Below, in pieces: positions 25,735 through 32,545 of a stretch of 35,930 bases of DNA. The position numbers and the translations under genes are program-made. The notes beneath the pieces are model-generated. The model was not told the DNA's origin, did not search any database, and was given only the letters and a program-made list of their open reading frames with translations. The stretch is from the IMG/VR virus record IMGVR_UViG_2671180986_000014. The stretch is one strand, 5' to 3'. This DNA is from a virus. Its lineage: Duplodnaviria > Heunggongvirae > Uroviricota > Caudoviricetes. Positions within the stretch are counted from its first letter, which is position 1. Every line of letters begins with the position of its first letter.

Positions 25735-26238
25735 TTAACGAAGTGCTGATGGCGCGCGCTTTTTCAGGTGATTAGCGATGTGCTTTTTCACATGCATAAC
25801 AACATCGCCCCAGGCTTCTTCACTGGGTTTATTGATAAATACGCGAACAGAAATATCGTCTTCCACCCGGACTCTCAGAGACACCCGTTCCGCATCCACT
25901 GAATATAATTCAAGTGCAATAACCACGCTTACGGGGTAGCTGCAATCAGATGACTTAACCCAGGTTCGCACGGCCATGCGAAAAATATTGTCTGGTGTAG
26001 ATGCGATATTGTGGACTGAAAGCGGACTAAAATCCGCTGCCGTCTTACATGGCAAGCCTGTCTCCACGTAGCGGTGCAGGTCGCCATCATCGTCTTCCCA
26101 GTACATGGATGGAAGCCCCAGCCATTCTTCATAGAAATCAATCAGCCTTGCTGCTTCATCCCGCAAAATTTGCGCTGCCTCAGCGCGTTTTTCTTCAGCT
26201 TCACGATTGATCTGGCATAAATCATTAAAGTGGCTCAT
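25735..26238 (-). CDS. hypothetical protein, paralog 2 (167 aa from ATG 26236-26238)
   Basis: AAGAGGA ribosome-binding site before the internal ATG; track start further upstream is not supported. Confidence 0.6.
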   Translation of the reverse strand: MSHFNDLCQINREAEEKRAEAAQILRDEAARLIDFYEEWLGLPSMYWEDDDGDLHRYVETGLPCKTAADFSPLSVHNIASTPDNIFRMAVRTWVKSSDCSYPVSVVIALELYSVDAERVSLRVRVEDDISVRVFINKPSEEAWGDVVMHVKKHIANHLKKRAPSALR

Positions 26239-26659
26239 GACATTATCCTCTTTTGAGTTGATGCCTGCCGCTATTCTGGCTTTGCCCGAACCCCCCTGCA
26301 AGCTGGTTATTCCATCAGATAATTTCACAACATCTCCAGCCCTGTAGCCATTATCGCCGGGCTGGTACTTACGTAACCCCGCAGTGCTGACTGCATGTTT
26401 CTCGCTGCCTCAGTGCGATTTTGACGGTCTTACCTTTCAGCCCATCAAATCAGAACCCCTCACGTCTTTTTCACGCTCAGCGTGAGAAATACAGCCATTC
26501 TGTTGTGTCGCTGCGACATCGTTCAGGGAATGCTATTTACCCCCTGAAACGCGGGCTGTTCCCCCGTCACCTGCGCGCAGAAAAAACGCGTTTTTTTGTG
26601 CACGCACGGATCCTTGACGGATCCAGTCGCCACGCGGGCCGGAAGGGTAAAAAGTTGTT

Positions 26660-26767: not shown

Positions 26768-27124
26768 ATGGAAATGAATATGAAAACTGTAACTGATGAT
26801 GAATTTCGTGAGAACCTGAGTGAAATTCTGGATTACCTTTCTTCCGGTGGCAGTGTCGTTATCACGGCGCAGGGAGGGAAGGATGTTGTTCTTGCTGGTT
26901 CTGATCTTAGTCCTGAAATACGGGCTGTCCTTGGCAAAACCAAAAAACTGCGGGATCAAATAAACAAAATGAAGCAACCACTCTTAATAAATGCAGTGAG
27001 AGATCTGGAAAAACGTCATCCAGCTCTTGTCGCACAGAGAAAAAAAGGATTGTCTTTTGAAGATGCAATGAAGCGTACAAGAGAAAAACATGCGGATATC
27101 ATTAAAAAGCTTGAGGATAACTGA
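26768..27124 (+). CDS. Phd/YefM-family antitoxin with C-terminal extension
   Basis: N-terminal region (FRENLSEILDYL...VVITAQGGKDVVLAG) has the Phd/YefM pattern; stop overlaps doc start (TGATG). Confidence 0.65.
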   Translation: MEMNMKTVTDDEFRENLSEILDYLSSGGSVVITAQGGKDVVLAGSDLSPEIRAVLGKTKKLRDQINKMKQPLLINAVRDLEKRHPALVAQRKKGLSFEDAMKRTREKHADIIKKLEDN

Positions 27125-27531
27125 TGGACATAGTGTTTTTGTCAAAAGAACAAGTAGAACGTATCCATGCTGAAACTTTACCCCAGAGCGGAAATGCCAA
27201 TGACGGGCTACTTGAAGGTGCTTTAAATCGCGTCAGGACACTACACTACTATGAAGGGGTTGATGATATTCATGCTCTGGCTGCTATGTATTTGATTGGT
27301 ATAGCCAAGGCTCATGCCTTTCATGATGGGAATAAACGCACAGCTTTTCAGGCTGCATCAATATTTTTAATGATGAACTCTTCCGAACTTTCAAACTCCC
27401 TGCTGCTGGTTAAATTAACGGTGTTTTCAGCAATGGGGATAGCTACCCTTGAGGAAGTTACCTTTGCTTTGAAATTGCTGTCTGATTATGGCAATGAATT
27501 AATCAGCGACTACGAAGAAGATTATATTTAA
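27124..27531 (+). CDS. doc: Doc (death-on-curing) toxin, Fic/Doc family
   Basis: Fic/Doc motif HAFHDGNKRTAF; 135 aa; translationally coupled to the antitoxin. Confidence 0.8.
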   Translation: MDIVFLSKEQVERIHAETLPQSGNANDGLLEGALNRVRTLHYYEGVDDIHALAAMYLIGIAKAHAFHDGNKRTAFQAASIFLMMNSSELSNSLLLVKLTVFSAMGIATLEEVTFALKLLSDYGNELISDYEEDYI

Positions 27532-27697: not shown

Positions 27698-28033
27698 TCA
27701 TTCATGCGTTTTTTCTTCATGGTCTGTCACTTCTCTCCTGATAACTTCATTGCACAAATCAACGCACTCATTGCAGATGTAAACAGACGGTCCGGCAATC
27801 ACCTTTGTGACTTCGTACTGGGATTTATTGCAGAAGCTGCAATAAATCGTCTCCTCACCTGAAGTCCATGTTTTGCTGGTTTCGCCAGACATCAGTTGTT
27901 TGAGGTCTTTTTCACGACGAAGAACTATCTGGCCACATTCAGCTATTTTTTGGATGTTGACATTTTCTTCTTTCGCCAGCGCTTCCATCCGCTCAATCAG
28001 TCGCTGCGCTTTTTCTCTGTCAATGCGTTGCAT
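27698..28033 (-). CDS. small protein with C-terminal ClpX-type C4 zinc-finger domain and N-terminal helical region
   Basis: [38 protein letters not shown] closely resembles the ClpX N-terminal zinc-binding domain; AAGGGGG ribosome-binding site. Confidence 0.7.
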
Positions 28034-29034
28034 TGTGTCCCCCTTGTTTATGTTCCCGGGTTAAAGTCATCAGGGCGGATGCGCCCTGATGTTGTGTTAT
28101 TCGGGAAATAACGCCCGGATATTTCCGGCCATCTGACTGGTTATCTGTGCGGTTGATACTGGCTGTGACGCGGGGCGTTCTGTCCTGGTTTGTGTCACTG
28201 ATAACGCTTCATCANNNNNNNNNNNNNNNNNNNNNNNNNNNNNNNNNNNNNNNNNNNNNNNNNNNNNNNNNNNNNNNNNNNNNNNNNNNNNNNNNNNNNN
28301 NNNNNNNNNNNNNNNNNNNNNNNNNNNNNNNNNNNNNNNNNNNNNNNNNNNNNNNNNNNNNNNNNNNNNNNNNNNNNNNNNNNNNNNNNNNNNNNNNNNN
28401 NNNNNNNNNNNNNNNNNNNNNNNNNNNNNNNNNNNNNNNNNNNNNNNNNNNNNNNNNNNNNNNNNNNNNNNNNNNNNNNNNNNNNNNNNNNNNNNNNNNN
28501 NNNNNNNNNNNNNNNNNNNNNNNNNNNNNNNNNNNNNNNNNNNNNNNNNNNNNNNNNNNNNNNNNNNNNNNNNNNNNNNNNNNNNNNNNNNNNNNNNNNN
28601 NNNNNNNNNNNNNNNNNNNNNNNNNNNNNNNNNNNNNNNNNNNNNNNNNNNNNNNNNNNNNNNNNNNNNNNNNNNNNNNNNNNNNNNNNNNNNNNNNNNN
28701 NNNNNNNNNNNNNNNNNNNNNNNNNNNNNNNNNNNNNNNNNNNNNNNNNNNNNNNNNNNNNNNNNNNNNNNNNNNNNNNNNNNNNNNNNNNNNNNNNNNN
28801 NNNNNNNNNNNNNNNNNNNNNNNNNNNNNNNNNNNNNNNNNNNNNNNNNNNNNNNNNNNNNNNNNNNNNNNNNNNNNNNNNNNNNNNNNNNNNNNNNNNN
28901 NNNNNNNNNNNNNNNNNNNNNNNNNNNNNNNNNNNNNNNNNNNNNNNNNNNNNNNNNNNNNNNNNNNNNNNNNNNNNNNNNNNNNNNNNNNNNNNNNNNN
29001 NNNNNNNNNNNNNNNNNNNNNNNNNNNNNNNNNN

Positions 29035-29489
29035 CCAGCCGGAATGGATTCAGGCATAACCCGTACGTTACGGATAGTAAATGCTTCGCTGTTCTGGTAC
29101 TCCACCGGGCGCATAACGTTCGCTTTTTTGCGGCTGATGTTGGCCATGTCCGGCTGTGCGTTTGTGTCGAAATACTCGCTCAGTGGCAGGGTGACAACCA
29201 CATCCACCTCCTGTGGCGTGATGCCTGATTTGACCAGCGCGTGATGAATGGCAATGACATTCACATCGCTGTACTGGTATTGCGTGTCGGTCGTCTGGAC
29301 AAAGCGATCGCTGACCGGATCAAAACCATAGCGCACGCCATCAAGCATGTAGTTCGCGGGCTGCGTGCCACCGAACGGCGCAGACCATTCCGACTTGAAG
29401 CTGTTCGGGCTGATGGCGTTGCGGCGTTCGCCGTTCTCAGTCCATGCCAGCTTGATGTTGGTGGAGCCGTCGTCGATACAAATTTTCAT
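29035..29489 (-). CDS. parM: ParM/StbA-family actin-like partition ATPase, visible N-terminal ~150 aa; rest masked by 820 N
   Basis: MKICIDDGSTNIKLAW...SPNSFK...YSDVNVIAIHHAL...VMPESIPA tracks plasmid R1 ParM closely; AAGGAAAA ribosome-binding site. Confidence 0.8.
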
Positions 29490-29520
29490 GTCGCTTTTCC
29501 TTATGTTGATTAATTAATCG

Positions 29521-29632
29521 TTTACAGGATTTTTAAATCCCGCTTTTGCCTGTTTTGTGCGCGCTTCATATATCGCGGCACGTTTTTTGCTCATTTACGG
29601 GATTTGTGAATCCCGTTTCTGTCTGTTTTTTG
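29521..29632. repeat. two ~39-bp hairpin-containing direct repeats (73-bp period) upstream of parM; parC-like centromere candidate or replication-origin structure
   Basis: tttacaggatttttaaatcccgcttttgcctgttttgtg and tttacgggatttgtgaatcccgtttctgtctgttttttg. Confidence 0.5.
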
Positions 29633-30025
29633 TTTCCACTGGTCAGGCTACCCCGCAGCAGGTCTGCTTTGCGGTGGGCGCGTTCAGTGGTTTCACTGAT
29701 TCTCTGTGCGTGCTCTGTGTCGCGGATGGCGCGCAGCATGTCAGAAAGCACGGTAACGGGTGTTTTCATGGTGTTCTGGTCCTGCTGAAGTGTGGATGCC
29801 AGGCGTGCGGCGGCTTCAGGGTCTGATGCCCCCAGCTGCGCCAGATAGCTGGCGACCGGGTTATGGCGGATCTCCGTGCTGCTTACGCCGTGATTACGGC
29901 TCAGGCGCTGCCAGAGCTGCGTGATTCGGCTGTCCGGGCGGGTATCCGGTTTGCGTACAATTTCAAATCCCTGCGGTGCAATGATGCTGCCGTCAACGTA
30001 CAGACTGCCGCCCCGTAACAGGTGC
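29566..30025 (-). CDS. CDS fragment of uncertain identity (C-terminus of A or a separate gene; 5' end masked)
   Basis: 153 in-frame codons to TGA at 29566-29568; the last codons overlap the second hairpin repeat. Confidence 0.35.
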
Positions 30026-30753
30026 NNNNNNNNNNNNNNNNNNNNNNNNNNNNNNNNNNNNNNNNNNNNNNNNNNNNNNNNNNNNNNNNNNNNNNNNNNN
30101 NNNNNNNNNNNNNNNNNNNNNNNNNNNNNNNNNNNNNNNNNNNNNNNNNNNNNNNNNNNNNNNNNNNNNNNNNNNNNNNNNNNNNNNNNNNNNNNNNNNN
30201 NNNNNNNNNNNNNNNNNNNNNNNNNNNNNNNNNNNNNNNNNNNNNNNNNNNNNNNNNNNNNNNNNNNNNNNNNNNNNNNNNNNNNNNNNNNNNNNNNNNN
30301 NNNNNNNNNNNNNNNNNNNNNNNNNNNNNNNNNNNNNNNNNNNNNNNNNNNNNNNNNNNNNNNNNNNNNNNNNNNNNNNNNNNNNNNNNNNNNNNNNNNN
30401 NNNNNNNNNNNNNNNNNNNNNNNNNNNNNNNNNNNNNNNNNNNNNNNNNNNNNNNNNNNNNNNNNNNNNNNNNNNNNNNNNNNNNNNNNNNNNNNNNNNN
30501 NNNNNNNNNNNNNNNNNNNNNNNNNNNNNNNNNNNNNNNNNNNNNNNNNNNNNNNNNNNNNNNNNNNNNNNNNNNNNNNNNNNNNNNNNNNNNNNNNNNN
30601 NNNNNNNNNNNNNNNNNNNNNNNNNNNNNNNNNNNNNNNNNNNNNNNNNNNNNNNNNNNNNNNNNNNNNNNNNNNNNNNNNNNNNNNNNNNNNNNNNNNN
30701 NNNNNNNNGTACGCNNNNNNNNNNNNNNNNNNNNNNNNNNNNNNNNNNNNNNN

Positions 30754-32545
30754 CAATGTAGGTGGCAAAACACCCTGCATCAGCGGCAGCGAGTACCGCA
30801 TCCATTGCATCATCCTTCAGCCGTTGCGGGCCTTCCGGGTTGCGTGCCATCTGGCTGGCAAGGCGGCGGAGTTCACGCCATACCTGACGGGAGGGGATGC
30901 CAAAGAACTGGAACTGGCGGACCCGATGAAGACGCGCCCAGCCGATGGCGCGCTCCACGCTCTCGGCCATTGATTTTCCGGTTTCGTGGTCAACGCGTGG
31001 CTTGCCCGTTTTCGGATCGATGCCATCCACGGCGCGGCTGTCCAGGTTTTTTCCGATGTAGGTGGCGATGTAGCTGGTTGGCGTGCCTTTTGAGCCGTCT
31101 ACGTACTCTGCCTTAAAACGCGGAGTTATGTCATCGCCCAGCTCGTGGCGGTCTTCCTGAATGGCAATATCGCGGGTGATGGCCACGATGCTGTCGATTT
31201 CTTCCGGATGAGCAAAGACCATCATATGCCAGTGCACGGTGCCGTCATGGTGAGGCTCCACCGTGCGGATGCCATACCAGCGAAGACCGTCGCGGTTCNN
31301 NNNNNNNNNNCGGACCGCCGCAAAAAACGTGTTAACCAGGTAATCGCTGGAGTCGCGCATGGTGGCCCCGTTCCATTTGGGATTCGGATGACCGTTCTCC
31401 GTTGTGGCGTGGTATTTTGACGGGCAGGTGACAGTCAGAAACACCGCTCTGTCGCCACGGGCTTCGGCCAGAAGTTCCAGCCCCTTCATGGTGGCCATCA
31501 TTTCTGCCTTACGGTGAACCGGGTTACTTACTCCCGCGTAATACACCGTCTCGAGATCAATCGTGAACCCGTCTTCATTTTCCAGCATGAAACTTTTCAG
31601 AAAATCGCGTGTTTTCTCGCGCTGTGCGCGAAACTCGCTTAACGCGTCCTGGCTCAGATAGGGAGATGTTTTTCTGGAAACCAGACAGGCGGCGCGGAGT
31701 TGTTCTTCTCTCCACTCGCAACGTAACAGCCACAGTTTGCGTTTCCACCATTCCGCACAGGTCAGGCGAAGGATTGCGCCCGGCAGCAGCTCCGTGTCCG
31801 GTTCGTTCCTCCGGTCTTTGTCTGTTGTCAGTGCGTCATAATGTGGAGGCATGGCGTGCAGGTGTAACGCCATGCGGGCCAGCATCTGATACGCCTTCAG
31901 CGTTACATCCATGGTCAGTTCGCCATCAGTCGCGCCAAAGCCATCGCAGAGTTTTTCGAAGGTGCTGCTGAACATCGCCGCCGTCATGGTGGCCAGCGTC
32001 TGTATCTGGTGTTTGTTGAGCTGCGGCAGGTAAAGCAAATCGTCCAGGCGTTCGCGTCCGGCAAGGGAGCGATACCCCGGTGTCAGCCAGCGTCCGTCAG
32101 TGCGATCCAGACGTTCGAATATTTTGCGCAGGGTTCCGCGTGCATAGCGTTCCGCCTGCCAGCTCTTTTTGCCTTTCTGGCGATCGGATTCCTGTTTTTT
32201 GCGCAGGAAGGAGAGGTGGCGAATAAGCGGATCGCGCAGATAGGACGGCAGCAGGCGCAGCGAGGCCATGGCTTCATCCACCGCGCCGCGTGCCTGTTTT
32301 CTGGCGTCTCCTGCCAGTGTGATGGTTTTGTCCTGTTTTTCCTGTGCGTCCAGGCTTTTATTAATCAGGTTGCCCAGCGGCGTGGCGGAGAACGCCGCAT
32401 CAGCCATTTCCTGGCGGCGTTCGTTCTCTACCCGGTAGGCATCCAGCCAGGAGGAAAGCGCGGATTCAGGAGCGGGGATCCCCGTTCCTTCACGCCCCAC
32501 TGCGTGGCGCGGTTGTTGCCAGTCCCTGATGTACTCTGCCGTCAT
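30754..32545 (-). CDS. A: replication initiation protein A (rolling-circle HUH endonuclease), visible N-terminal ~600 aa; 3' end masked
   Basis: HUH-like VHWHMMVF and paired-Tyr SYIATYIGK motifs; large size; position in the early operon. Confidence 0.85.

Follow-up and report, generated by a model that had tools for sequence, protein, structure and literature searches.

A ParMRC-like partition cassette with a candidate two-palindrome centromere next to gpA in P88-like phages

The viral DNA record IMGVR_UViG_2671180986_000014 (35,930 nt; hereafter the window, by which we mean this whole stretch, whose numbering is used throughout) carries a plasmid-type partition module at the 3' end of gpA, the replication endonuclease gene of a P2-family phage. 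The module comprises parM, which encodes an actin-like ATPase, parR, which encodes its predicted DNA-binding adaptor, and two upstream repeats that are candidates for a centromere, all on the minus strand. On balance we think it probable that this locus is a working type II ParMRC-like cassette, conserved by lineage in P88-like phages, and that it acts on free circles of the phage genome. An earlier reading of the window from its letters alone (the sequence-only reading) had proposed a plasmid-type ParM/ParR module in a P2-family phage, and the Pfam, PDB and profile matches described below agree with it. The cassette is real and under selection, and finding it here is a correct re-discovery of an annotated feature that had already been remarked upon.

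The same reading had called such a module unexpected, a judgement that the existing record does not bear out. NCBI PGAP annotates ParM and a "plasmid partitioning/stability family protein" at the locus, PHROGs lists both ParM and ParR as partition proteins, the cassette is present in phage P88, and parM with the adjoining 3' end of gpA was matched in 1266 of 5426 complete Escherichia coli genomes. Rousset et al. 2022 (Cell Host Microbe; PMC9122126), who analyzed this gpA-gpQ interval in P2-like prophages of E. coli, noted a putative plasmid partitioning system in about a fourth of them, suggested plasmid maintenance, and classed the system under "other functions" in a hotspot with many defence and conversion genes. 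In the phiSM paper the gene appears only as a "fitness" open reading frame (ORF; PMC6456863), and our literature search found no experimental work on this cassette. The annotation, the printed remark and the same episome hypothesis were thus already in place; new relative to Rousset et al. are the candidate for the centromere, the position within gpA at which the module begins, the domain layout of ParR, the selection analysis and a control on plasmid records.

Part of the module is hidden in the window by a run of N at 28215-29034, where the letters cannot be read, and a second run (30026-30753) interrupts gpA. The relative used to fill the mask, locus L001 on an E. coli chromosome (NZ_CP074781), is 99.8% identical to the unmasked flanks. 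Because the parMR stretch of the window is 117 nt longer than that of L001, and because gpA, which measures 2980 nt from start to stop, is read in different frames in its two visible parts, the N runs seem not to have kept their true length, and the masked content was therefore taken from relatives. ORFs listed through the masks are artefacts, and we rejected on this ground a 425-aa ORF in the ORF listing of the window that arises from reading through the first N run.

The visible 151 residues of the window ParM are 56% identical to R1-type ParM (BLASTP E=4e-61), so that the resemblance of the N-terminal ~150 residues to R1 ParM/StbA, noticed at first from the letters alone, stands up to a formal search. 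The L001 gene is 960 nt long and encodes 319 residues, the length found in all 11 related loci that were read. Its full-length product matches the Pfam families StbA_N (3.5e-82) and the ParM C-terminal domain (3.5e-68), a full-length relative matches the structure of R1 ParM (PDB 1mwk) at E=1e-93 over residues 2-316, and the global identity between the phage protein and R1-type ParM is 46.7%. Residues D6, E147 and D169 and the GGGAE motif of phage ParM correspond to D6, E148, D170 and GGGAE of R1, with a one-residue offset from R1 after position 18, and the motifs IDDGSTN, MPES, DLGGTT and GGGAE are all kept. IDDGSTN and MPES are the motifs visible in the window, and the others were read in the 99.8%-identical relative; read in this way, the protein is an actin-fold ATPase of the ParM/StbA type with its nucleotide-binding and hydrolysis motifs intact. 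The ratio of nonsynonymous to synonymous substitution rates (dN/dS) of parM is 0.01-0.19 and none of 10 loci carries a disrupted copy, values from which parM is judged to be under purifying selection. As recovered through the relatives, the ORF is neither truncated nor lacking an adaptor gene, an outcome that would have undone the sequence-only reading.

On the other side of the mask, the visible protein C-terminus at 28097-28214 reads DEALSVTQTRTERPASQPVSTAQITSQMAGNIRALFPE up to its stop and is identical to the end of L001 ParR; the unlisted C-terminus that had been suspected there is real and is the end of parR. The TGATGA at 28209-28214, beside the mask, had been offered as an alternative gene end, and we rejected it as a stop since it lies out of frame with parR, which reads A-D-D-E across it. 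In L001, parR is 312 nt long (103 aa) and starts 4 nt past the parM stop, and a ParR-like ORF of 102-104 aa follows at the same distance in 11 of 11 loci. The masked stretch had been judged large enough for a parR-sized gene, and every close relative has a ParR-like gene in that place. ParR of a relative belongs to the Pfam family Plasmid_stab_B (PF10784, ParR/StbB; 1.6e-24). A search of the PDB with the single ParR sequence gave no match, and only a profile search succeeded, in which the profile of ParR relatives matched ParR of pB171 (2jd3) with E=1.7e-10, residues 5-102 against 7-130. The protein is laid out as an N-terminal segment, PTRRISFYLKP, that is near-invariant across loci, two to three helices, a hypervariable Pro/Gln-rich linker (65-85) and a terminal motif, M..NI.A.FP, which aligns with the C-terminus of R1 ParR (KKNAMKLIN) and with the ends of IncF and IncI ParR proteins. 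An AlphaFold 2 (AF2) model of the monomer, of low confidence (predicted local distance difference test, pLDDT, 61) and for that reason not used for a fold search, places helices at 20-61 and 86-100 and disorder at 65-84, and shows no strand. By its family and profile matches, the gene directly downstream of parM encodes a small ribbon-helix-helix ParR adaptor, and the cassette as a whole is apparently intact.

The parR gene is mosaic, with a sharp boundary. In loci L004 and L007-L010, parM is 96-99% identical to that of L001 at the nucleotide level, and parR (about 960-1275 nt past the parM ATG) falls to 69%, or 53-57% in protein, from about codon 16 to the stop. There are at least three groups of parR alleles, in all of which the N-terminal DNA-reading segment and the C-terminal motif are still conserved. 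One allele group (L009 and L010, 4309-4437) has a 42-aa ORF directly after parR with a weak StbA_N match, which looks like a leftover 5' fragment of parM from an earlier recombination.

Upstream of parM, the window contains two direct repeats of 42 nt each, 81% identical and 73 bp apart, and each carries a GGGATT-N4-AATCCC palindrome. Two hairpin repeats had been described here from the letters; they are present, as direct repeats with palindromes, and their length is 42 nt instead of the 39 bp first given. Allowing up to one mismatch, GGATT-N4-AATCC occurs in the 35.9-kb window only at these two places, and a search for GGGATT-N4-AATCCC with up to two substitutions in L002, a complete unmasked relative of 34.5 kb, found only two sites, both upstream of parM. 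Among 12 loci, the palindromes are conserved in their arms and variable in their 4-nt spacers. The strongest evidence for the element comes from a divergent Hafnia-type locus (L022), in which ParM is 94% identical at the protein level and the upstream gpA tail only 64% identical at the nucleotide level. This locus keeps both 42-nt repeats, the palindrome arms and the exact 73-bp spacing, and gpA terminates there at a stop codon within the distal palindrome's spacer. Since the repeats persist although the gpA tail has drifted and even ends within a palindrome, their conservation is at the level of DNA and not of gpA coding. A check for palindrome variants that track particular parR alleles revealed no such pairing. 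In R1, parC is made up of direct A/C-rich iterons in two blocks, and the phage palindromes do not resemble it.

The joint loss of these elements in one relative defines the upstream edge of the module. P88-type locus L018 (NZ_CP157152) loses homology to L001 about 110 nt before the gpA stop, its gpA ends 19 residues earlier with a different tail, and the repeats, the last gpA codons and parMR are absent together, with an AAA ATPase and an S8 peptidase in their place. Because both repeats are lost along with parMR, sequence comparison indicates that they are part of the par module. The repeats are thus a candidate centromere, that is, predicted ParR sites upstream of parM whose position and spacing are conserved and which are co-inherited with parMR. 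The sequence-only reading had likened their position to that of parC, and as centromere candidates they are good; the distal copy, though, lies inside the last codons of gpA and not in intergenic DNA, and the gap between gpA and parM is 76 bp. P88-type gpA (927-946 aa; 7910-10750 in L001, about 29566-32545 in the window) is 30% identical to the 761-aa gpA of P2 and has a C-terminal extension of about 140 residues in which no Pfam domain was found. Its final ~35 codons are read from par-module DNA. In L018 (1-3265), the AAA-family ATPase and S8 peptidase genes that directly follow gpA resemble a two-gene defence set.

At the downstream edge, phage records cease to be homologous at the parR stop or directly beside it. 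The cassette therefore belongs to the conserved flank of the gpA-gpQ hotspot, and the gene that follows it (27698-28033), matched in 3 of the 14 parMR-carrying phage records, is separate, variable cargo.

No sigma-70-type promoter on the gene strand upstream of parM passed a simple consensus scan, and no minus-strand terminator was found by scanning between gpA and parM. Because no such promoter or terminator separates the two genes, parMR is probably co-transcribed with the early replication operon. Nor was a promoter found that lies inside the candidate centromere and would be under autoregulation by ParR, the simple consensus scan being a weak test of it; read by eye, a sub-threshold promoter-like pair (TTTAAA-17-ATTAAT, 8 of 12 matches) overlaps the proximal palindrome. 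On the gene strand the sequence after the hairpins is A-rich, and on the plus strand a T-rich tract follows each of them, the distal one being called terminator-like. RNA of the repeat region folds better than shuffled controls (z = -3.3), a stability that the palindrome alone would give.

When we searched complete E. coli genomes with parM and the 3' end of gpA, 1437 of 5426 had matches, and in 1266 of these (88%) at least 80% of the query was covered. About one in four complete E. coli genomes thus has the cassette, O157, O104:H4 and ST131 strains among them, and so do 14 phage records, including P88, phiSM and P884B11. Phage P88 (NC_026014), classified in the genus Xuanwuvirus (Peduoviridae), is 97.7% identical over 97% of the query across gpA, parM and parR, and the neighbours of the cassette in relatives are P2-family capsid, scaffold, terminase and portal genes. 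By these sequence matches the window comes from a P88-like phage (Xuanwuvirus, Peduoviridae). It had been described as an integrated P2-like prophage, of which the P2-family assignment stands. The right end of the window lies inside the phage, at a DUF4761 early gene, and neither an integrase, nor an att site, nor host flank was found within it; integration therefore cannot be read from the window itself.

The closest plasmid ParM proteins are 47-52% identical to the phage protein, save for those in six plasmid records at 95-99%. These six carry the phage allele, five of them were seen with phage gpA adjoining, and to judge by their sequences they are P88-like prophage DNA filed as plasmid. 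The distance to the remaining plasmid proteins argues against a recent capture from a plasmid. The captured cargo module offered by the sequence-only reading is not supported as a recent acquisition: plasmid ParM proteins stay at or below about 52%, the phage-allele records aside, and the place of the cassette, right after gpA, is fixed. A ParM search of genome contigs returned only three near-identical loci and no taxonomic breadth. One locus (L005, NZ_JBQPOM010000071.1) is a 226-kb contig labelled Vagococcus sp. whose parM is 97% identical to the E. coli phage gene, and it probably reflects contamination or an enterobacterial contig under a wrong label.

The matching places in complete E. 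coli genomes are chromosomal in 1619 cases and on plasmids in 2 (n=1621), and the fully read relatives that reach the integrase region (L001 and L002) encode an integrase. Only one phage-sized circular plasmid record, of 34,461 bp (NZ_CP148288.1), is a whole P88-like genome; it includes the integrase, and the chromosome of its strain is absent from the E. coli genome set. As a control we took pENTAS02, a phage-sized circular plasmid record that is a P2-like phage without par genes. Given such records for phages that lack the cassette, we rejected the circular P88-like record as evidence of an episome; phage DNA that has been excised or is replicating can produce records of this kind, as can assembly, and the evidence that they give is weak. 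The plasmid records NC_015969.1 (L021) and NZ_CP019275.1 (L020) are whole P2-like phages without partition genes, and one of them includes the chromosomal genes smpB, ratA and bamE. Phage-sized circular plasmid records thus call for caution when phage-plasmids are counted from plasmid databases. Extrachromosomal maintenance as a phage-plasmid was not found in these data, with which a rare or transient state is still compatible.

P2-family phages replicate as monomeric circles, which are also the packaging substrate and would therefore be a suitable cargo for ParMR. The analysis above shows which genes are present and which of their motifs are conserved, how the repeats are arranged, where the module ends, that parM is under purifying selection and how widely the cassette occurs; the binding of ParR to the palindromes, the timing of expression and the role are what we infer. 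The cassette would be expressed with the early replication operon and would do its work at the stage when the phage genome exists as a circle outside the chromosome, after infection or following excision and induction. Dimers of ParR would bind the two palindromes, the conserved C-terminal helix of ParR would capture the ends of ParM-ATP filaments, and the growing filaments would push ParR-bound phage circles apart. Replicating or not-yet-integrated genomes might in this way be spaced or partitioned, as AlpA and AlpC (AlpAC) do for prophage CGP3. That P88-like phages thereby use a ParMRC spindle to partition their own unintegrated or excised circles between daughter cells, for a heritable episomal phase or for spatially organised replication, is possible, and we put it forward only tentatively; it would be the first ParM-driven segregation of a virus shown in enterobacteria, with a minimal two-palindrome centromere that overlaps the end of a replication gene.

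Several points weigh against a working cassette that acts on phage circles. ParR binding, filament formation and a phenotype are predictions from sequence, and the masked part of the window's own parM and parR is unread. A site of two palindromes is unlike the 10 iterons of R1 parC and could be a mere operator, and the weak promoter-like pair may leave room for autonomous, ParR-repressed expression in lysogens. The cassette is, on the genome counts, dispensable, because about 12% of matching genomes have no match that covers at least 80% of the query and the two that were examined have a truncated parM and a replaced cassette.

Truncated or replaced copies of this kind, together with the 42-aa parM fragment after parR in one allele group, would also be expected of a decaying relic of a plasmid or phage-plasmid ancestor with no present function, which we regard as highly improbable: the low dN/dS of parM, its intactness in 10 of 10 examined copies, the retention of all ATPase and ParR motifs, and a ParM that is 94% identical where the neighbouring DNA is 64% identical all speak against decay. 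A more limited claim is that the hairpin repeats are transcription signals (a terminator or attenuator) or a ParR operator only, the true centromere being elsewhere or lost. The plus-strand T-rich tracts with their terminator-like distal member, the RNA fold and the small number of sites, two as against 10 iterons in R1, fit this claim. On the gene strand, however, the A-rich sequence after the hairpins makes them no terminators of gpA or parM, no plus-strand gene reads into them, they travel with parMR, and their arms and a spacing of seven helical turns are kept while spacers and flanks drift. The R1 centromere doubles as an operator, so that the two roles are compatible, and we hold a purely transcriptional role to be distinctly unlikely.

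If P88-like phages were facultative plasmid prophages that persist as low-copy plasmids instead of, or besides, integrating, a complete-looking cassette under purifying selection and a circular record of a whole P88-like genome would be expected, and plasmid maintenance is what Rousset et al. suggested (PMC9122126). Against this stand the 1619 chromosomal places among 1621, the integrase genes of L001 and L002, and circular records that are non-specific, as one (pENTAS02) lacks par and another includes chromosomal flank genes. We know, moreover, of no copy-number control for gpA-type rolling-circle replication, and consider a plasmid prophage unlikely. The cassette might instead serve the lysogen in a role other than segregation, through incompatibility with or exclusion of ParMRC plasmids or superinfecting P88-like phages, or through another benefit to the host. 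Its place at the edge of a hotspot rich in defence and conversion genes (PMC9122126), the sharply divergent parR alleles (69% at the nucleotide level) beside near-identical parM, and the promoter-like pair over the proximal palindrome lean this way. PADLOC models match neither ParM nor ParR, though, and the near-invariant DNA-reading N-terminus of ParR and the independence of the repeat variants from the parR alleles give no sign of diversifying specificity; palindromes unlike R1-type iterons also make a cross-reaction with IncF plasmids unlikely. On this evidence a lysogen role of that kind is improbable. Membership in an anti-phage defence system was rejected separately, as ParM, ParR and the neighbouring ClpX-zinc-finger protein have no PADLOC match and Rousset et al. 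placed the partition system under "other functions".

If the cassette does move phage circles, it would reveal an unrecognised extrachromosomal phase in P2-family phages, the textbook integrators, with consequences for the interpretation of spontaneous induction and of the gain and loss of prophages. E. coli would also gain a tractable counterpart to AlpAC of CGP3. Useful additions in any case are a candidate for the centromere, a precise edge of the module within gpA and the near-absence of database support for a stable plasmid state.

The coordinates of the module and of its neighbours in the same hotspot are collected in Table 1. The product of the gene beyond the parR stop is a free copy of the substrate- and adaptor-binding domain of ClpX and might interfere with ClpXP targeting; its N-terminal region of about 60 residues has no family match, the whole protein has no PADLOC match, and phrog_6797 is of unknown function. 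In the toxin-antitoxin pair, the Doc protein has weak matches to the PADLOC candidate families PDC-S23 and PDC-M59B. The ORF at 25735-26328 has no match in Pfam, NCBIfam or PADLOC.

Table 1 Features of the par module and its surroundings in the window
Feature	Position	Strand	Remarks
197-aa ORF	25735-26328	minus	only match phrog_5091 (unknown function); lies between the toxin-antitoxin genes and the hotspot's portal side
Type II toxin-antitoxin pair	26768-27531	plus	Phd/YefM-like antitoxin (118 aa) and Doc/Fic toxin (135 aa); same hotspot
111-aa protein with C-terminal ClpX-type C4 zinc finger	27698-28033	minus	PF06689, 3.1e-17; phrog_6797; not part of the par module
GC-rich hairpin, 10-bp stem	28068-28091		just past the parR stop, on the module's downstream edge; terminator-like in scan; only in some relatives
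parR, visible 3' part	28097-28214	minus	38 codons and TAA stop (28097-28099); variable linker and conserved C-terminal motif QMAGNIRALFPE
Masked N run	28215-29034	minus	in relatives: 3' half of parM, 4-nt gap, first 65 codons of parR; 703 nt in L001
parM, visible 5' part (actin-like segregation ATPase)	29035-29489	minus	151 codons (29037-29489), ATG at 29489
Proximal 42-nt repeat, parC-like candidate	29518-29559	minus	palindrome at 29524-29542; within the gpA-parM gap, 29-70 bp before the parM ATG
gpA replication endonuclease, 3' tail	29566-29680 (start approximate)	minus	stop at 29566-29568; read from par-module DNA
Distal 42-nt repeat, parC-like candidate	29591-29632	minus	palindrome ACGGGATTTGTGAATCCCGT at 29597-29616, within the last gpA codons

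Among known systems, the cassette most resembles ParMRC (StbA/StbB) of the plasmids R1 and NR1. The two share the order centromere (a candidate one in the phage), parM, parR, a ParM that is 46.7% identical over its full length with the same catalytic motifs, a ParR of the same Pfam family whose C-terminal motif aligns with the ParM-binding peptide of R1, and upstream repeats in two blocks. R1, however, is a low-copy plasmid and the phage replicon a normally integrated P2-family phage; phage ParR has 103 residues against 117 and is without the segment that follows the core domain. R1 parC is built of 10 direct 11-bp iterons (2 x 5), whereas the phage has two palindromes 73 bp apart, of which the distal one overlaps the coding end of gpA, and the scan detected no consensus promoter in or beside the space that separates the phage repeats. 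ParR of pB171 (StbB, PDB 2jd3), a ribbon-helix-helix centromere-binding adaptor, is the only solved structure that the phage ParR profile matched; it is longer than phage ParR (130 against 103 residues). The centromeres of pB171 consist of many short direct repeats.

Phages P1 and N15 live as plasmids and use ATPases of the Walker-type ParA class. Their ParABS and SopAB systems, like the cassette described here, combine a phage-encoded centromere, an adaptor and an NTPase beside replication functions, whereas P88-like phages encode an integrase, and all but 2 of their 1621 places lie on chromosomes. In the Corynebacterium glutamicum prophage CGP3, the actin-like AlpC and the adaptor AlpA are products of early genes and bind sites upstream of their operon (alpS), tether circles of phage DNA to filaments, and are required for the circle to replicate efficiently (PMC4446434). 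Host phylum and phage type differ, the phage ParM described here is a close member of the R1 family, and no link of sequence family to AlpC is claimed. With an actin-like ATPase, a DNA-binding adaptor and upstream sites in an integrated prophage, expressed early after induction (PMC4446434), AlpAC would by analogy be the best functional counterpart of the ParMRC-like cassette of P88-like phages.

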